DNA of 5,906 bases. It comes from a virus (Duplodnaviria > Heunggongvirae > Uroviricota > Caudoviricetes). The stretch spans positions 1 to 5,906 of IMG/VR virus record IMGVR_UViG_2778261591_000026; one strand, 5' to 3'. The notes under the pieces were generated by a model that was not told the origin of the DNA, did no database searches, and was given only the letters and a program-made list of their open reading frames with translations. Numbering within the stretch: position 1 is the stretch's first letter; each line of letters begins with the position of its first letter. A program made the translations under genes and the position numbers. Of this stretch, positions 1 to 5,906 are shown one piece after another.

Positions 1-153
1 AGGGTTGATGTTTATCAGGGGCAAAATGGTCAATCAATCACTCTTGAATTACTGAATGCAAAGATTGGATTTGCAGCTTCAGGAAATGGCCCGCAGCAGC
101 AAAGTAGTAACCAGCAGAACACTCCTGTATACGACGATTCCATCCCATTCTGA
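1..153 (+). CDS. 3' end of a gene (5' truncated by window edge); C-terminus resembles single-stranded DNA-binding protein (SSB)
   Basis: Frame 1 is open from position 1 to TGA at 151-153. Translation ends ...GNGPQQQSSNQQNTPVYDDSIPF: a Gly/Gln/Pro-rich low-complexity tail ending in an acidic D-D-x-I-P-F tip, like the canonical SSB C-terminal tip DDDIPF. Not in the ORF track because it has no in-window Met start. Confidence 0.45.
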   Translation, partial: RVDVYQGQNGQSITLELLNAKIGFAASGNGPQQQSSNQQNTPVYDDSIPF

Positions 154-176
154 TTCAGAAAAATAAGGATTTAATC

Positions 177-473
177 ATGCCAGCGCCTCTGTATGGTGCG
201 GATGACCCGCGCCGCTGTTCCGGCAATTCCATATCGGAGGTGCTGGAAAATATCAAGAATAATCTCGACGCGTTTCTTGCTCTGCCACCAGAAACAAAAG
301 AAGAACGGAAGTACCGACGCGATATACAACTCGCAGAAAAACAGGAAAAAGACCGAATAAACGAAACATCAATCCGACCATTCCGCAAAGCCACATATAC
401 CCACTTCCCTGAATATATCGACCCGCGCCTGCGTAATTACCGCTCACGCTATGGCGCTATCAGTAATGACTGA
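177..473 (+). CDS. Hypothetical phage protein, 98 aa
   Basis: ORF track entry; ATG at 177 preceded by AAGGA at 165-169; same strand and tight spacing with neighbours. No recognised family. Confidence 0.55.
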   Translation: MPAPLYGADDPRRCSGNSISEVLENIKNNLDAFLALPPETKEERKYRRDIQLAEKQEKDRINETSIRPFRKATYTHFPEYIDPRLRNYRSRYGAISND

Positions 474-483
474 GGAATTTACC

Positions 484-774
484 ATGAAAACAATGAAGCT
501 AAACATCGACCTCGGAAAATACGTTATTACCGGAACCAAACACGACCTGATTCTTAGTGAAAGAGGAATTATCAAAGAAGGCGAGAATGCAGGGAAAGAA
601 ACACTAAGCCGTATCGGTTATTACAGCAAGTTTGAGCATCTGGTTAAAGAATTATGCAACCGTGAAATCATGTTATCTCAGGCGCAGACGCTACAGGATA
701 TTCAGCAACATATCGAGAATTTAGGTGTGTCACTTAGCATGGCTATTGACCAGTTCGTGGAGAGTAAATCATGA
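484..774 (+). CDS. Hypothetical phage protein, 96 aa (an in-frame longer form could start at 451)
   Basis: ORF track gives 451..774. ATG at 484 is preceded by GAGGA at 473-477 with 6-nt spacing and begins right after the upstream stop (471-473), so 484 is the preferred start. Stop TGA 772-774 overlaps the next ATG (ATGA). Confidence 0.6.
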
Positions 775-938
775 GAGGACTTGCATACAATCCCGGCATT
801 CTTCCAGCAGAAATGATTATTCGCCAACGCGTAAAGCCAATGCCATCGAGAGAGGAATTGCTTAAGAGAAATTCTTTTCCTTCAGTGAATCAAAACAAAT
901 ATCTGAATGCGATGTGGCGTAAAGGAGGCAAGCAGTGA
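771..938 (+). CDS. Small hypothetical protein, 55 aa ([55 protein letters not shown]), absent from the ORF track
   Basis: ATG at 771 overlaps the upstream stop (ATGA); its stop TGA 936-938 overlaps the GTG start at 935 (GTGA). It exactly fills the gap in an otherwise coupled operon. GGAGAG lies at 759-764. Confidence 0.4.
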
Positions 939-1393
939 GCGAAATTAACTATAAAGAACTGCGCGAGGCGGCGAAACAGGCAACGCAAGATGAATGGGTA
1001 GCATATATTTTGCCGGGCCATAACGGCATTTATCCTGCGCGCACGTCTGAGGGTAGGCATTGCGGATACTTTATTGACTGGCCTGGTACTGATGGACAGA
1101 GGAACGCTAGTGCCAATGCCCGTTATATCGCGGCTATCCCACCAAAAGTTGCGCTGGACCTCCTAGGCGAAATTAAGCGCCTGGAGGACAAAAATATTGA
1201 TGCCATGTGCCAAATTGCAGAGCTGGAGAGCAATCGCGCGGCGCTGGCGGCGGAGCATGGTATTCAGATTGCAATAAATGAACTGCTTGCTCTGGCCCCG
1301 CGTCTGGATAAACGAGCGGTGGATGCACTCTCTGTGGCTGTGGAGCACCTGTGTAAACTGATTAAGAAGGAGGCAGTCAGTGAGCAAAATTAA
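935..1393 (+). CDS. Ead/Ea22-like phage protein, 152 aa (paralog 1)
   Basis: GTG start at 935 with AAAGGAGG at 921-928. N-terminus [17 protein letters not shown]... resembles the N-terminal region I recall for lambda Ea22 and Ead-family proteins. Shares N-terminal and central motifs with the next ORF. Confidence 0.75.
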
Positions 1394-2054
1394 TTACCAG
1401 GCACTGCGTGAGGCGGCAGAGAAAGCAACGTGGGGAGACTGGGACTCATATAAACCACACCGTGGCGCACGTGGTTATGAGGTCCGACTAAGTAGTCAGG
1501 CCATTGCGCAACACGTCCTGAAAAACAACGCTGAATTTATTGCTGCCTTTAATCCAAAGATTGCTTTGGCACTACTGGATGAACGGGAAAGAAACCAGCA
1601 ATACATCAAACGCCGCGACCAGGAGAACGAGGATATTGCGCTAACGGTAGGGAAGCTGCGTGTTGAGCTGGAAGGCAAAGACAGCAAAATAGCCAATCTT
1701 ACCGCCGAACGCGATGCTCTTCGTGAAGGTGAGATGGGCGACGCTAGGCATAGCAACACACGGGCCGCAGCTGATATCTACTTCCAACTGGTCGAGGAGT
1801 GCGAAATTCCTGCTGGCCGTTCTCTGGTCGAGTACGTTGACGATATGCGCGAGAAGCTGGAAGCCGCAGAGAAGCGCATTGCTGAGCTGGAGTTGCGGGA
1901 GGTTGTGCTTCCGCAATGCTATAGCATGTTGCATCGCGTCGATTTTGACGAGCCTTACCACACTGAAATGGTTTACAGGCAGCATCAGGTTCTTGAGGCA
2001 CTGCACAACGCTGGAATAAACGTCACCGAAGCAGGTAAAGGAGAGGCATCATGA
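1380..2054 (+). CDS. Ead/Ea22-like phage protein, 224 aa (paralog 2), coiled-coil-rich middle and divergent C-terminal half
   Basis: GTG start at 1380 with AAGGAGG at 1366-1372. N-terminus [17 protein letters not shown]... and motif PKIALALLDERERNQQYIKRRDQENEDIALTVGKLRVELE resemble lambda Ea22 as I recall it. Stop TGA 2052-2054 overlaps next ATG 2051 (ATGA). Confidence 0.75.
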   Translation: MSKINYQALREAAEKATWGDWDSYKPHRGARGYEVRLSSQAIAQHVLKNNAEFIAAFNPKIALALLDERERNQQYIKRRDQENEDIALTVGKLRVELEGKDSKIANLTAERDALREGEMGDARHSNTRAAADIYFQLVEECEIPAGRSLVEYVDDMREKLEAAEKRIAELELREVVLPQCYSMLHRVDFDEPYHTEMVYRQHQVLEALHNAGINVTEAGKGEAS

Positions 2055-2578
2055 GCACTATCACAAGAGAATGGCTGCAGCAGACTATCAACGATTATGA
2101 AAGCGTTCGTGATGAGCTTCCTTTCGGGCTTGATGATTACCAGGGGAATATCCTGGCTGCCCTGCGTATCGCACTGGCATCGCTGGAAGCAGAGCCGGTG
2201 GCGTGGAAGGTAACATTCACGCAAATTGACCGTGAATATAACACGTTCACTGGTATGTATTCTGACAAAGCAGAAGTCGAACGGTGGGTGCGTCTGCATA
2301 AAGCATGTAATTTTCGGGCAGATATAACACCGCTTTATACCGCCAAGCCAGTGCCGGTAACTCCGGATGGTTGGATAAGCTGTAGTGAGCGAATGCCGGA
2401 AATTAGACAAACAGTTATTGGATGGAATGGATATGCAGTTAGACAATGCGTATATACAAGGAATGAATATGCCAAGACACAGAAAGGCAGAGAGCCAAGG
2501 TTTGAAACCTTAACTGGTATATGGCATGGAGTAACCCACTGGATGCCGCTACCAGAACCGCCGCAGGAGGTGAAGTGA
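2051..2578 (+). CDS. Phage protein with DUF551-like C-terminal region, 175 aa
   Basis: ATG 2051 preceded by GGAGAGG. C-terminal segment ...PDGWISCSERMPE...GW...THWMPLPEPP matches my recollection of the DUF551 signature common in lambdoid prophage accessory regions. Stop 2576-2578 overlaps next ATG 2578. Confidence 0.75.
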   Translation: MSTITREWLQQTINDYESVRDELPFGLDDYQGNILAALRIALASLEAEPVAWKVTFTQIDREYNTFTGMYSDKAEVERWVRLHKACNFRADITPLYTAKPVPVTPDGWISCSERMPEIRQTVIGWNGYAVRQCVYTRNEYAKTQKGREPRFETLTGIWHGVTHWMPLPEPPQEVK

Positions 2579-2856
2579 TGGACTCCTTCGCGAAATATAC
2601 GATTATTGACTGGATAGCCTTCCTTCAGGTTTTGCTCATCTGGTTTTATATGGCTTACAGGAGTGGACAGTGGATTGTCAGTGTAGCCTGTAGCAAGGGA
2701 TGGCGTTGGTGGAACCGGAAGAATAAAAAAGCACTGGCATTGGATTCGTTTTACGAAGCATTCAATCTTAACAGCCTTCAACCTGGTTCTGTCATTGTAG
2801 TCACCACTCAAAGCGGCATGACCATTCAGATTCATAAACCAAAAGAGGAAAAATGA
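2578..2856 (+). CDS. Small predicted membrane protein, 92 aa (the ORF track's 2521 start is an in-frame extension inside the upstream gene)
   Basis: ATG 2578 with GGAGG at 2566-2570 (7-nt spacing), coupled to the upstream stop. Translation has one strongly hydrophobic segment (IIDWIAFLQVLLIWFYMAY) followed by a basic patch (KGWRWWNRKNKK) and a roughly 45-aa tail. No recognised family. Confidence 0.55.
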   Translation: MDSFAKYTIIDWIAFLQVLLIWFYMAYRSGQWIVSVACSKGWRWWNRKNKKALALDSFYEAFNLNSLQPGSVIVVTTQSGMTIQIHKPKEEK

Positions 2857-2942
2857 TGTGGCCTATATGTGTTAATTGCGGACGGATGTGCCTATCTGGA
2901 TGGTGCCGAAAGTGCGACAAATGCACGAAGCAAAGACAATAA
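2853..2942 (+). CDS. Candidate Cys-rich micro-protein, 29 aa (MMWPICVNCGRMCLSGWCRKCDKCTKQRQ), possible zinc-ribbon-like peptide
   Basis: ATG 2853 overlaps the upstream stop 2854-2856 (ATGA); purine-rich AGAGGA at 2844-2849. Six Cys in 29 residues arranged CxxC-x3-C-x4-CxxCxxC. Too short for the ORF track; coding status unproven. Confidence 0.3.
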   Translation: MMWPICVNCGRMCLSGWCRKCDKCTKQRQ

Positions 2943-2976
2943 CAATCCTCGCACTCGCGGGGATTTCTTTTATCTG

Positions 2977-3002
2977 AACTCGCTACGGCGAGTTTTGTTT
3001 TA
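2977..3002 (+). terminator. Candidate hairpin plus U-rich tract (weak intrinsic terminator or RNA structural element)
   Basis: AACTCGC (2977-2983) pairs with GCGAGTT (2988-2994) around a 4-nt loop TACG, followed by TTGTTTTA. Lies in the 72-bp non-coding gap before the 55-aa ORF. Confidence 0.25.
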
Positions 3003-3014
3003 TGGAGATGATAA

Positions 3015-3182
3015 ATGCACTTCCGAGTCACAGGCGAATGGAATGGAGAGCCATTCAACAGAGTTATCGAAGCAGAGGACATCAATGACTGCTATAACCA
3101 CTGGATGATATGGGCGCAGATAGCAAATGCAGACATAACCAATATTCGAATTGAAGAACTGAAAGAACACCAAACCGCCTGA
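3015..3182 (+). CDS. Small hypothetical phage protein, 55 aa (MHFRVTGEWNGEPFNRVIEAEDINDCYNHWMIWAQIANADITNIRIEELKEHQTA); same position as the small ORF preceding xis in lambda
   Basis: ATG 3015 preceded by GGAGA at 3004-3008 (6-nt spacing); clean translation. Prefer this over the overlapping track ORF 2869..3108, which has no RBS and runs across the 2977-3002 hairpin. Confidence 0.55.
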   Translation: MHFRVTGEWNGEPFNRVIEAEDINDCYNHWMIWAQIANADITNIRIEELKEHQTA

Positions 3183-3196
3183 TGGCGGTTTTTTCT
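3173..3196 (+). terminator. Candidate rho-independent terminator directly after the 55-aa ORF
   Basis: AACCGCC (3173-3179) pairs with GGCGGTT (3184-3190), a 7-bp stem with 5 GC pairs and loop TGAT, followed by TTTTTCTT. The ORF stop codon sits in the loop. Confidence 0.4.
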
Positions 3197-3235
3197 TGCG
3201 AGTAATTGCGGAGACTTTGCGATGTACTTGACACT
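3196..3235 (+). promoter_or_regulatory. Probable cII-activated pI-type promoter for int (cII half-sites TTGC-N6-TTGC at 3196-3209), overlapping the xis start
   Basis: TTGC at 3196-3199 and 3206-3209 separated by 6 nt, the spacing of cII sites in lambda pRE/pI/paQ. Location at the 5' end of xis matches the known position of lambda pI. Confidence 0.5.
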
Positions 3236-3440
3236 TCAGGAGTGGAACGCACGCCAGCGACGTCCAAGAAGCCTTGAAACAGTTCGTCGATGGGTGCGCG
3301 AATGCAGGATATTCCCTCCTCCGGTTAAGGATGGAAGAGAGTATCTGTTCCACGAATCAGCGGTAAAGGTTGACTTAAATCGACCAGTAACAGGTAGCCT
3401 TTTGAAGAGGATCAGAAATGGGAAGAAGGCGAAGTCATGA
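3222..3440 (+). CDS. xis: Excisionase Xis, 72 aa, lambda type
   Basis: Translation MYLTLQEWNARQRRPRSLETVRRWVRECRIFPPPVKDGREYLFHESAVKVDLNRP... is recognisable as lambda Xis. Overlaps int by 23 nt as in lambda. Confidence 0.95.
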   Translation: MYLTLQEWNARQRRPRSLETVRRWVRECRIFPPPVKDGREYLFHESAVKVDLNRPVTGSLLKRIRNGKKAKS

Positions 3441-4488
3441 GCGCCGGGATTTACCCCCTAACCTTTATATAAGAAACAATGGATATTACTGCTACAGGGA
3501 CCCAAGGACGGGTAAAGAGTTTGGATTAGGCCGAGACAGGAGGATAGCAATCACTGAAGCAATACAGGCCAACATTGAGTTATTTTCAGGACACAAACAC
3601 AAGCCTCTGACAGCGAGAATCAACAGTGATAATTCTGTTACGTTACATTCATGGCTTGATCGCTACGAAAAAATACTCGCCAGCAGAGGAATCAAGCAGA
3701 AGACACTCATAAATTACATGAGCAAAATTAAAGCAATAAGGAGGGGTCTGCCTGATGCTCCAATTGAAGACATCACCACAAAAGAAATTGCGGCAATGCT
3801 CAATGGATACATAGACGAGGGCAAGGCGGCGTCAGCCAAGTTAATCAGATCAACACTGAGCGATGCATTCCGAGAGGCAATAGCTGAAGGCCATATAACA
3901 ACAAACCCGGTCGCTGCCACTCGCGCAGCAAAATCAGAGGTAAGGAGATCAAGACTTACGGCTGACGAATACCTGAAAATTTATCAAGCAGCAGAATCAT
4001 CACCATGTTGGCTCAGACTTGCAATGGAACTGGCTGTTGTTACCGGGCAGCGAGTTGGTGATTTATGCGAAATGAAGTGGTCTGATATCGTAGATGGATA
4101 TCTTTATGTCGAGCAAAGCAAAACAGGCGTAAAAATTGCCATCCCTACAACATTGCATGTTGATGCTCTCGGGATATCAATGAAGGAAACACTTGATAAA
4201 TGCAAAGAGATTCTTGGCGGAGAAACCATAATTGCATCTACTCGTCGTGAACCGCTTTCATCCGGAACAGTATCAAGGTATTTTATGCGCGCACGAAAAG
4301 CATCAGGTCTTTCCTTCGAAGGGGATCCGCCTACCTTTCACGAGTTGCGCAGTTTGTCTGCAAGACTCTATGAGAAGCAGATAAGCGATAAATTTGCTCA
4401 ACATCTTCTCGGGCATAAGTCGGACACCATGGCATCACAGTATCGTGATGACAGAGGCAGGGAGTGGGACAAAATTGAAATCAAATAA
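3418..4488 (+). CDS. int: Tyrosine site-specific integrase Int, 356 aa, lambda type
   Basis: Translation MGRRRSHERRDLPPNLYIRNNGYYCYRDPRTGKEFGLGRD... ending ...HLLGHKSDTMASQYRDDRGREWDKIEIK is recognisable as lambda Int. HxxR motif (HELR) present and the catalytic Tyr codon TAT is at 4441-4443 (residue 342). Confidence 0.97.
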   Translation: MGRRRSHERRDLPPNLYIRNNGYYCYRDPRTGKEFGLGRDRRIAITEAIQANIELFSGHKHKPLTARINSDNSVTLHSWLDRYEKILASRGIKQKTLINYMSKIKAIRRGLPDAPIEDITTKEIAAMLNGYIDEGKAASAKLIRSTLSDAFREAIAEGHITTNPVAATRAAKSEVRRSRLTADEYLKIYQAAESSPCWLRLAMELAVVTGQRVGDLCEMKWSDIVDGYLYVEQSKTGVKIAIPTTLHVDALGISMKETLDKCKEILGGETIIASTRREPLSSGTVSRYFMRARKASGLSFEGDPPTFHELRSLSARLYEKQISDKFAQHLLGHKSDTMASQYRDDRGREWDKIEIK

Positions 4489-4561
4489 TGATTTTATTTT
4501 GACTGATAGTGACCTGTTCGTTGCAACAAATTGATAAGCAATGCTTTTTTATAATGCCAAC
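4485..4561. other. attP P' arm: Int arm-type sites P'1-P'3 (about 4485-4513, reverse-complement orientation) and IHF H' site (about 4524-4536)
   Basis: Sequence caaataatgattttattttgactgatagtgacctgttcgttgcaacaaattgataagcaatgc is the reverse complement of the lambda P' arm as I recall it. It contains ATAGTGAC arm-type motifs and caacaaattgata, the reverse complement of an IHF-consensus-like TATCAATTTGTTG. Confidence 0.8.
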
Positions 4562-4576
4562 TTAGTATAAAAAAGC
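4562..4576. other. att core (common core O) of the prophage/host junction, attL (B-O-P') read on the opposite strand
   Basis: TTAGTATAAAAAAGC is the reverse complement of the lambda core GCTTTTTTATACTAA. Left flank (ccaac) continues as P' arm; right flank (aggcttcaacgg) continues as host attB arm. Confidence 0.9.
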
Positions 4577-4622
4577 AGGCTTCAACGGATTCATTTTTCT
4601 ATTTCATAGCCCGGAGCAACCT

Positions 4623-5906
4623 GTGAACACATTTTCAGTTTCCCGTCTGGCGCTGGCATTGGCTTTTGGCGTGACGCTGACCGCCTGTAGCTCAACCCCG
4701 CCCGATCAACGTCCTTCTGATCAAACCGCGCCTGGTACCTCTTCTCGCCCGATTCTGTCGGCAAAAGAAGCGCAGAATTTCGATGCTCAACACTATTTTG
4801 CATCCCTGACACCAGGTGCTGCAGCGTGGAATCCTTCCCCGATTACCCTGCCTGCGCAACCTGACTTTGTTGTCGGCCCGGCGGGCACTCAAGGTGTAAC
4901 GCATACCACGATTCAGGCGGCGGTAGATGCGGCAATTATCAAGCGTACCAACAAGCGCCAGTATATTGCCGTGATGCCTGGTGAGTATCAGGGAACGGTA
5001 TATGTCCCTGCCGCTCCGGGTGGAATTACTCTGTACGGTACAGGTGAAAAACCGATTGATGTGAAGATTGGGCTTTCCCTTGATGGTGGCATGAGCCCTG
5101 CCGACTGGCGTCACGACGTCAACCCGCGCGGCAAATATATGCCAGGTAAACCAGCGTGGTATATGTACGATAGCTGCCAGAGCAAACGCAGCGACAGTAT
5201 CGGTGTTCTCTGCTCTGCGGTCTTCTGGTCACAAAACAATGGCCTGCAACTGCAAAATCTGACCATCGAAAACACGCTGGGCGATAGCGTAGATGCAGGT
5301 AACCATCCGGCGGTGGCACTGCGTACTGATGGTGACCAGGTACAGATTAACAACGTTAACATTCTCGGTCGTCAGAACACCTTCTTTGTCACCAACAGCG
5401 GTGTGCAGAACCGTCTGGAAACGAATCGTCAGCCGCGTACGCTGGTGACCAACAGCTACATTGAAGGGGATGTGGATATCGTTTCTGGTCGCGGCGCAGT
5501 GGTGTTCGATAACACCGAATTCCGCGTGGTGAACTCACGTACTCAGCAAGAAGCGTATGTGTTTGCACCGGCTACGCTGTCCAACATTTACTACGGTTTC
5601 CTCGCCGTAAACAGCCGTTTCAATGCTTTCGGTGATGGTGTGGCGCAACTGGGCCGCTCGCTGGATGTTGATGCCAATACCAACGGTCAGGTGGTGATCC
5701 GTGATAGCGCCATCAACGAAGGTTTTAACACGGCTAAACCGTGGGCCGATGCGGTGATCTCTAATCGTCCGTTTGCGGGTAATACCGGCAGCGTAAATGA
5801 TAACGACGAAATACAGCGCAATCTGAATGACACTAACTACAACCGCATGTGGGAATACAATAACCGCGGCGTGGGTAGTAAAGTGGTTGCAGAGGCGAAG
5901 AAGTAA
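4623..5906 (+). CDS. ybhC: Host outer-membrane lipoprotein YbhC, 427 aa (pectinesterase-like, carbohydrate esterase family 8 fold)
   Basis: GTG start at 4623 with GGAG at 4612-4615. Signal peptide with lipobox L-T-A-C (Cys22). Sequence recognisable as E. coli YbhC, the gene next to attB-lambda. Stop TAA at 5904-5906 is the last codon in the window. Confidence 0.93.
   Translation: MNTFSVSRLALALAFGVTLTACSSTPPDQRPSDQTAPGTSSRPILSAKEAQNFDAQHYFASLTPGAAAWNPSPITLPAQPDFVVGPAGTQGVTHTTIQAAVDAAIIKRTNKRQYIAVMPGEYQGTVYVPAAPGGITLYGTGEKPIDVKIGLSLDGGMSPADWRHDVNPRGKYMPGKPAWYMYDSCQSKRSDSIGVLCSAVFWSQNNGLQLQNLTIENTLGDSVDAGNHPAVALRTDGDQVQINNVNILGRQNTFFVTNSGVQNRLETNRQPRTLVTNSYIEGDVDIVSGRGAVVFDNTEFRVVNSRTQQEAYVFAPATLSNIYYGFLAVNSRFNAFGDGVAQLGRSLDVDANTNGQVVIRDSAINEGFNTAKPWADAVISNRPFAGNTGSVNDNDEIQRNLNDTNYNRMWEYNNRGVGSKVVAEAKK

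Follow-up and report, generated by a model that had tools for sequence, protein, structure and literature searches.

Two neighbouring Ead/Ea22-like genes of a lambdoid prophage are probably separate mosaic cassettes joined at a family-wide gene-boundary module

The closest described relatives of the genes considered here are ea22 of phage lambda and the ead-like genes of P22-like phages. Ea22 proteins have three parts, namely a short N-terminal region, then a coiled coil and, at the C-terminus, a variable domain, one variant of which is DUF551, and they form tetramers (PMC10834534, PMC7093339). For the Ea22 proteins of lambda and of Shiga toxin (Stx) phages, a pro-lysogenic phenotype has been reported (PMC7093339, PMC10834534), and a preprint from 2026 treats the neighbouring region as an anti-defence hotspot, noting occasional fusions of Ead/Ea22 to an anti-OLD relative of P22 EaE (bioRxiv 10.64898/2026.07.10.737580). 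The present analysis concerns a stretch of 5,906 nucleotides from a Caudoviricetes virus (IMG/VR record IMGVR_UViG_2778261591_000026, positions 1 to 5,906; hereafter the window), which carries two overlapping Ead/Ea22-like open reading frames (ORFs), ORF1 and ORF2, each beginning at a copy of a repeated start module. An initial annotation, made from the sequence alone, saw in this arrangement a tandem duplication followed by swapping of the C-terminal domains. We conclude instead that ORF1 and ORF2 are probably separate mosaic members of the family, placed next to one another as cassettes with predicted translational coupling, and that recombination at the module and at hinges within the genes would swap such cassettes.

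When compared with lambda ea22, the locus shares the same Pfam family, the same position in the pL operon between the recombination genes and xis-int, the leader, a probable three-part plan and, in ORF2, a coil start identical at 34 of 34 residues. However, the C-terminal domain of lambda Ea22 (8DSX) is matched by neither ORF, ORF1 is shorter and ends in another, two-helix module, and lambda ea22 is present in one copy with no annotated gene within ~190 nt downstream or ~440 nt upstream, whereas here two genes are coupled head to tail. P22 Ead, HkaG of HK620 and the ‘ea’ region of P22-like phages are found among the same neighbours, namely abc2 anti-RecBCD, DUF2737 and DUF551/EaA-type genes, and HK620, HK140, HK106 and HF4s have segments of 96-97% identity in common with the window. 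Unlike the window, the P22-like phages have a single ead-like gene annotated under the match, and because none of the listed phages covers more than 46% of positions 771-2578, the combination of segments differs as well. The HK620 genome paper of Clark et al. from 2001 reportedly deals with boundary (linker) sequences in lambdoid phages. Short conserved boundary sequences of this kind have been proposed as foci of lambdoid recombination (Susskind & Botstein 1978; Clark 2001; both in the passage of PMC3029335 that cites them). The repeated start module of the window resembles them in being a short sequence at a module boundary that is retained by phages which differ elsewhere, with mosaic joints on either side. 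It differs in that it bounds a single small accessory gene and no functional module, and in that it is also a predicted site of translational coupling with stops in two frames.

Both ORFs belong to the family. Each starts with GTG behind AAGGAGG, and both lie above the PF13935 gathering score of 27 bits, ORF1 with 64.5 bits over profile positions 1-90 of 139 only and ORF2 with 102.3 bits over the whole profile (1-139 of 139). A pairwise BLASTP alignment of the proteins gives 38% identity over the first ~100 residues (E = 4e-12) and finds no similarity past that point. The leader M-S-x-I-(N/D)-Y-x-x-L-R-E-A-A and the PK(V/I)AL..LL hinge are carried by both, and the end of ORF1 (AAG AAG GAG GCA GTC AGT GAG CAA AAT TAA) holds the AAGGAGG and GTG of ORF2, with an overlap of 14 nt. 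The features stated in the initial annotation are all there at the coordinates given. The direct repeat that it had put at roughly 75 bp is also present, with a size of 86 nt and an identity of 73% between its copies, and is by far the longest repeat in 700-2700, although the longest exact run in the two copies is just 9 nt (AAGGAGGCA). The two genes do not differ in their C-termini alone, as the family alignment places their N-domains in different variants, too.

The nature of the repeat is evident from the wider family. We compared 80 related IMG/VR loci, along with others taken from E. coli genomes, in a sample selected for similarity to ORF1, and located every family gene and its start with an N-domain hidden Markov model. 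Across 88 distinct family genes, the majority base reaches 70-100% in most columns from -14 to +32, third-codon positions largely included, and the consensus is AAAGGAGGCAACCA-GTG-AGC-AAR-ATT-RAY-TAY-CAG-GCA-CTG-CGT-GAG. Random pairs of distinct family genes have a median identity of 75% in -24..+36, compared to 56% downstream and 50% upstream; thus, the 73% identity of the window modules is the family background. The exact 20-mer AAAGGAGGCAACCAGTGAGC is found in 53 of the 96 fetched loci, and at least 20 identical bases in a row occur in 35% of distinct junction pairs. In lambda, the 5' end of ea22 reads GTGAGCGAAATTAAC..CAGGCACTGCGTGA and the leader and hinge counterpart is MSEINSQALREAAEQA. 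A short conserved sequence between unrelated flanks, as described for lambdoid boundary sequences, is what was found (mostly 70-100% in the module and 50-56% in the flanks). On the basis of these alignments, we regard the repeated start module as the family's standard 5' gene-boundary sequence and see no trace of a local duplication in it. A tblastn search of phage records retrieved 482 of them, most being Escherichia, Stx and Salmonella phages and a small number coming from Klebsiella and Pseudomonas, while a pattern scan of genome contigs for taxonomic breadth returned 2 weak loci only, the pattern being too specific.

The separate histories of the two genes are apparent from their relatives, which at 96-100% identity occur with other partners. 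Searched against complete E. coli genomes, the ORF1 region (921-1400) has 271 matching places, and plasmids of ~90-100 kb account for 162. The ORF1 lineage resides mainly on P1-like phage-plasmids, where its relatives precede different Ead genes, and is partly present in P1 records; furthermore, prophages that occupy the mlrA site and encode another integrase contain an identical 480-nt block. The body of ORF2 recurs at 97-98% identity in genes that have another N-domain or lie behind another neighbour, and the family alignment as a whole reveals at least 4 N-domain variants, two coil-start types and many C-terminal domains in mixed combinations. In addition, the slot occupied by ORF1 need not contain an Ead gene at all. 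A synthetic joint lacking ORF1 (840-934 + 1380-1520) is contiguous in E. coli EC291 (L099; L numbers denote compared loci), with 97.9% identity over all 236 nt, and recurs in further genomes at 95-97%; in EC291, DUF2737 is joined directly to an ORF2-type gene. Alternative occupants of the slot are a 100-residue hypothetical gene (L100) and a DUF7446 gene (L101), both of which begin AAAGGAGGCAAGCA-GTG-AG. Relative to such genomes, ORF1 is a single cassette of 445 nt (935-1379) with the module at both ends, and the relatives with an empty slot bear out that the repeated module delimits a unit which some related prophages carry and others lack. It is against this background that a recent local tandem duplication of one Ead/Ea22 gene, with subsequent divergence and replacement of the C-terminal half, must be judged. 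The two genes are certainly adjacent, of one family and orientation, and share the 86-nt repeat and N-terminal motifs, which speaks for a duplication. Yet a repeat at background identity, N-domains of different variants that are 38% identical, ORF1 copies of 95-100% identity mostly on P1-like plasmids beside other partners, an ORF2 body found behind other N-domains and neighbours, and a slot that close relatives leave empty or fill with unrelated genes largely refute a local duplication, which we now consider extremely unlikely. The initial proposal does hold in that the C-terminal parts are exchanged modules.

Another key feature of the module is that it terminates one gene as it begins another. 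It contains stops in both other frames, TGA at +2..+4 (GTGA) and TAA or TGA at +12..+14, so that an upstream gene in either other frame ends inside the module. Out of 86 distinct junctions, 56 have an upstream ORF of at least 40 codons that stops at the first position with a 4-nt overlap, and 20 have one that stops at the second with a 14-nt overlap; the upstream genes are of many kinds. The window makes use of both: DUF2737, whose last codons (CGT AAA GGA GGC AAG CAG TGA) hold the Shine-Dalgarno of ORF1 and whose stop overlaps its GTG (GTGA), ends at the first, and ORF1 ends at the second, its TAA (1391-1393) being supplied by module copy 2 in the +2 frame. When the upstream ORF lies in the third frame, gene callers predict fusions such as ...SEQRRQPVSKIDYQALREAA.... 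RNA folding of the three gene junctions gave no excess of structure over shuffled sequence (z = +1.0, +0.44 and +0.10), and a regulatory hairpin or folded recombination site is therefore rejected; an unstructured junction is as expected for an open initiation region. A programmed +1 frameshift from ORF1 into ORF2 was also considered and discarded by inspection, since the Shine-Dalgarno lies 14 nt from the stop, compared to ~3 nt in the prfB type, AAT-TAA offers no codon for re-pairing, and ORF2 has a strong initiation site of its own that is used throughout the family.

Mosaic joints can be traced in the window itself. Near-identity with single relatives starts or stops at ~944-966, 1526-1567 and 1674-1685, as well as at two islands in the DUF551 gene. 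For ORF2, the breakpoints by relative are 1554 (L092), 1526 (L093), 1567 (L003), 1674 (L002) and 1685 (L007). In a change-point test of 126 distinct contexts by ungapped comparison, 33 of the 64 pairs that share downstream and diverge upstream sequence break at -40..-1, while in the 226 pairs with common upstream sequence no break precedes the start codon, the breaks falling at +20-39, +60-99 or +280-340. Mosaic joints appear concentrated at the module, as would be anticipated of a boundary sequence, in ungapped comparisons of loci that are related and redundant. Overall, the positions are suggestive of breakpoint clustering at the module and at two hinges within the gene.

A different explanation for the same module deserves consideration, namely that it is conserved for its encoded content only and that cassettes are swapped by illegitimate recombination with selection for intact genes. 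The module coincides exactly with the initiation region plus the most conserved peptide of the family, it is unstructured like good initiation sites, and similar junctions are not depleted in tandem arrays; moreover, illegitimate recombination is favoured as the origin of most phage mosaic joints (PMC3029335). Encoded content does not readily account for conservation at most synonymous positions, nor for its extension by ~20 nt upstream into the coding sequence of unrelated genes in two frames. The runs of 20 or more identical bases in over a third of junction pairs, the identical first 19 bases of the alternative slot cassettes and the occurrence of breakpoints on both sides of the module are likewise at odds with it. 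We therefore view this explanation as unlikely.

Several points nonetheless weigh against cassette exchange at the module and hinges: 1) a longest shared run of 9 nt in the window copies is too short for efficient RecA-type exchange between them, 2) conservation of the module could partly reflect constraint on the N-terminal peptide and on translation initiation, 3) the breakpoint pairs come from redundant, related loci and so are non-independent, and an indel can mimic a joint, 4) recombination is deduced from comparison, with no event observed, 5) the depletion of similar junctions in tandem neighbours is not significant (p = 0.10), which leaves no sign that the repeats destabilise arrays, and 6) the mechanism at the protein level is borrowed from lambda Ea22 and the AlphaFold2 models are poor. 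Copy number is subject to a caveat of its own. The survey proposed in the initial annotation found one copy at 29 of 79 IMG/VR loci, two at 47 and three at 3, making arrays of two or more the commonest state (50/79), but these figures are biased because the loci were chosen by similarity to ORF1. Among 53 neighbouring family pairs, 31 overlap by 4 nt. As for the idea that the repeat mediates deletion or expansion of copies, it is supported at the level of the phage population and weak for the window copies, which are a poor substrate for deletion in situ because their longest exact match is 9 nt, and similar junctions are not significantly avoided between tandem neighbours. A more plausible route of exchange is recombination among phages whose module copies are closer to each other.

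ORF1 requires separate discussion, as the Prokaryotic Genome Annotation Pipeline (PGAP) marks its first 324 nt as an ‘incomplete; missing C-terminus’ pseudogene in every complete genome inspected (L001 4165-4488, L002 2665-2988, L005, L006 and L007). If ORF1 were a decaying, truncated Ead/Ea22 gene, the ‘pair’ would be one gene plus debris. The Pfam match, limited to profile positions 1-90 of 139, would fit such a truncation. In ORF1, a variant A N-domain leads through the PKVALDLL hinge into a short predicted coiled coil, behind which lies a C-terminal module of two helices. Its similarity to full-length relatives of 228-234 residues ends near 1255 (query position 335), and L003 matches 1148-1255 only. 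The C-terminal module that follows is a portable tail: it occurs in frame on at least five different N-termini among the fetched loci, and at the extreme C-terminus of ~30 protein types (representatives at 50% identity, 88-247 residues) with unrelated N-termini that include Ead N-domains and DUF551-type sequences. Because the module recurs in frame on many unrelated N-termini, ORF1 is to be considered a real gene. An intact frame of 145-158 residues is present in more than 60 clusters at 71-98% identity and in hundreds of contigs, the ratio of non-synonymous to synonymous substitution rates (dN/dS) is 0.28 for the N-terminal part and, when measured against a relative of 79% identity, 0.46 for the tail, and the start and stop of ORF1 are still coupled to neighbours on both sides. 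The remaining support for decay, 11 non-synonymous versus 1 synonymous tail differences between the window and L006, involves too few changes to interpret; with approximately three times more non-synonymous sites, 11:1 among 12 changes is, judged by eye, near neutral. A pseudogene is accordingly very unlikely. The call likely arises since only the N-terminal 108 residues align to family members, and we consider it probable that ORF1 is an intact mosaic gene and its annotation as a pseudogene mistaken. The tail is also the best-predicted part of the ORF1 AlphaFold2 model, with a predicted local distance difference test score (pLDDT) of ~77. As an observation in its own right, this module of ~40 residues, two helices with the pattern GI[QE]IAINEL..L.P.LDKRAV..LS.AV.HL.KL.KK (1256-1393; proteins P0241-P0266), ends many small phage proteins, and no family name was found for it.

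ORF2 is similarly composite, with a variant B N-domain, a putative coiled coil in common with lambda Ea22 and a C-terminal domain unrelated to that of lambda. In BLASTP, it is 55% identical to lambda Ea22 over 104 residues, including the identical coil start LLDERERNQQYIKRRDQENEDIALTVGKLRVELE, which falls in the published coiled coil of lambda, and then diverges. The coil of ORF1 is different and shorter, and its similarity to lambda Ea22 is restricted to the first 21 residues; the lambda-type C-terminal domain (Ea22 residues 102-182) is absent from both ORFs, as BLASTP similarity ends after the coil. ORF2-type proteins of 224 residues form a cluster of 173 members at 98% identity. A KRIAELE island separates the coil of ORF2 from its C-terminal domain; the 15-mer of this island is carried by ORF1 at 1214-1228 (14 of 15 bases), and a motif survey across the family saw at least 15 different C-terminal domains behind KRIAELE. 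PDB sequence and profile searches returned no match for ORF1 or ORF2, whereas lambda Ea22 finds 8DSX at 1e-51. An NCBIfam scan gave no informative match, and the PADLOC defence models gave only a weak coiled-coil match of ORF2 to PbeC (E = 0.0035, 14 bits) and none for ORF1. The AlphaFold2 models, built from alignments of 26 and 22 homologues, are poor (mean pLDDT 52 and 54), and structural claims are limited for this reason to long helices, predicted with low confidence at residues 59-117 of ORF2 and 70-123 of ORF1.

The 3' ends of the genes are stereotyped, too. Nearly all of the tails, which include (A/E)QLRKGGNQ*, AGIRIKGE*, GKGEAS* (ORF2) and KKEAVSEQN* (ORF1), encode the Shine-Dalgarno of the next gene. 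The 3' end of ORF2 is one such case: it holds the Shine-Dalgarno of the following gene, and the next ATG, at 2051, overlaps its stop (ATGA). The DUF551 gene is the next cassette of the same, presumably translationally coupled string. Ea22 proteins possess a conserved C-terminal K/R-G-E tripeptide (the ‘+GE’ motif), whose significance has been reported as unknown (PMC7093339). Judging from the nucleotide sequence, this tripeptide is the translation of AAAGGAGAG, the Shine-Dalgarno of the following gene (...IRIKGE* with TGAtATG, and GKGEAS with ATGA here). Lambda retains the K/R-G-E-coding AAAGGAGAGTGA (L094 2348-2375, - strand) with no gene closely downstream, and there the tripeptide thus looks like a relic.

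Based upon these features, a plan for the exchange of Ead/Ea22 genes can be proposed. Each gene would be made up of exchangeable segments, namely a conserved leader, a variable N-domain, the PKxALxLL hinge, a coiled coil, the KRIAELE hinge, a variable C-terminal module and a Shine-Dalgarno tail. As the module combines a ribosome-binding site, GTG and stops in two frames, an upstream gene would end inside it and ribosomes would be handed on to the next. The module is common to many phages and phage-plasmids, which would permit homologous recombination there and at the internal hinges, and such recombination could insert, delete or replace cassettes to produce arrays of one to three Ead/Ea22 genes. 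In the lineage of the window, ORF1 (935-1379) would have filled a slot that is empty or otherwise occupied in close relatives. We infer both recombination inside the module itself and translational coupling between neighbouring genes. By analogy with what has been published for lambda Ea22, the proteins may serve as oligomeric scaffolds that display variable C-terminal modules.

As for the wider setting of the pair, the window covers the int-proximal end of a lambdoid prophage that occupies the attachment site of lambda. The Int ORF (356 residues, 3418-4488) has 99% identity to lambda Int, the lambda att core GCTTTTTTATACTAA is found at 4562-4576, and a chromosomal ORF runs from 4623 onward. 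The + strand, taken to be the direction of the early-left (pL) operon, carries in tightly packed order abc2, DUF5405, DUF2737, ORF1, ORF2, DUF551, DUF4752, a 55-residue protein, Xis and Int (Table 1). Xis, too, was recognised by Pfam. Ead/Ea22 genes are expected in just this place, in the early-left accessory region that separates phage recombination genes from xis-int.

Table 1. Positions of the genes, boundary modules and conserved islands discussed in the text (window coordinates).
Feature	Positions	Strand	Basis
abc2 anti-RecBCD	177-473	+	Pfam
DUF5405 protein, 96 aa	484-774	+	Pfam
DUF2737 gene, 55 aa	771-938	+	Pfam PF10930, E = 8.8e-32
Boundary module copy 1: AAGGAGG, spacer, GTG, leader codons	922-1007	+	Direct repeat; column conservation
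ORF1, Ead/Ea22-like, 152 aa, GTG start	935-1393	+	PF13935
ORF1 hinge and coil start	1139-1255	+	Conserved island where relatives switch partners
ORF1 C-terminal module, portable tail	1256-1393	+	In-frame recurrence; its end doubles as the next Ead start module
Boundary module copy 2: AAGGAGG, spacer, GTG, leader codons	1367-1452	+	Direct repeat; junction table
ORF2, Ead/Ea22-like, 224 aa, GTG start	1380-2054	+	PF13935
ORF2 hinge and coil start NPKIALALLDERERNQQYIKRRDQENEDIALTVGKLRVELE	1554-1680	+	Near-identity with relatives begins or ends here
KRIAELE island between ORF2 coil and C-terminal domain	1875-1892	+	Repeat search; motif survey
ORF2 3' boundary ...GGT AAA GGA GAG GCA TCA TGA (GKGEAS*)	2031-2054	+	Sequence; 3'-tail survey
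DUF551-domain protein, 175 aa	2051-2578	+	PF04448, E = 7.4e-16
DUF4752 gene	2578-2856	+	Pfam
55-aa gene	3015-3182	+	ORF list

A number of observations concern the surroundings of the pair. In its closest relative, E. coli OkiPb01684 (L001 1891-3692), IS100 lies between abc2 and DUF5405, upstream of the same ORF1-ORF2 pair, and the prophage occupies the mlrA site with a different integrase. The DUF5405 protein is labelled ‘replication initiation protein’ by PHROGs (phrog_154, E = 1.7e-32) and is without function in Pfam and PGAP; for a protein of 96 residues in such a position, the label seems doubtful. Within the DUF551 gene, two islands of ~50 nt (2354-2403 and 2531-2580) are 91-98% identical in relatives with otherwise non-matching DUF551 sequence, and the second of these forms the 3' boundary of the gene itself (PEPPQEVK* with GTGA/ATGA). 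Ead-DUF551 fusions also occur among the family proteins, with the joint at ...IAELEAEPV... (P0201). A Cys-rich ORF of 29 codons, MMWPICVNCGRMCLSGWCRKCDKCTKQRQ (2853-2942, +), overlaps the DUF4752 stop by ATGA; judging by its residues it looks like a mini zinc-ribbon peptide, and an NCBIfam search with it gave no match. It is followed by two consecutive terminator-like hairpins in 2944-2995, and a bidirectional terminator-like hairpin (3172-3191) lies directly 3' of the 55-residue gene; these hairpins fall within the pL transcript, which should be antiterminated. An Rfam scan of the window yielded no match, and a promoter and terminator scan yielded nothing relevant within 900-2100. Antisense ORFs in 1163-2006 were treated as chance, as none has a family match or an argument from conservation.

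ORF1 and ORF2 are ordinary members of a known mosaic family and do not constitute a new kind of system, and their significance is best appreciated with this in mind. They offer a clean and well-sampled case in which the exchange of cassettes in a temperate-phage accessory region is organised by short conserved boundary sequences, including traffic between integrated prophages and P1-like phage-plasmids. They also document a two-frame coupling junction, offer an explanation for the ‘unknown’ conserved C-terminal K/R-G-E motif of Ea22 proteins, and correct a likely systematic annotation error, in which a widespread gene of 152 residues is called a pseudogene by the NCBI pipeline. Some aspects of the array are reminiscent of integrons. 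Like integron arrays, it contains small, exchangeable accessory genes in the same orientation, bounded by repeats and variable in number at a fixed slot. Unlike them, it has neither a dedicated site-specific recombinase nor an attC-like folded site (there is no junction structure), its repeats are coding sequence plus translation signals, and exchange is presumed to occur by general or phage-encoded homologous recombination. It is conceivable, though doubtful, that the module has evolved as a universal cassette adaptor, joining ribosome-binding site, start codon, two-frame stops and 20-45 nt of homology, with contributions from the hinge islands and Shine-Dalgarno tails, and that the region between the recombination genes and xis is a recombinase-independent cassette array. 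If so, the array would allow variable effector modules, carried by an oligomerising scaffold that stays constant, to pass between lambdoid prophages and P1-like phage-plasmids, and tandem copies would broaden the range of host or defence targets, which would fit the view of this region as an anti-defence hotspot (bioRxiv 10.64898/2026.07.10.737580).

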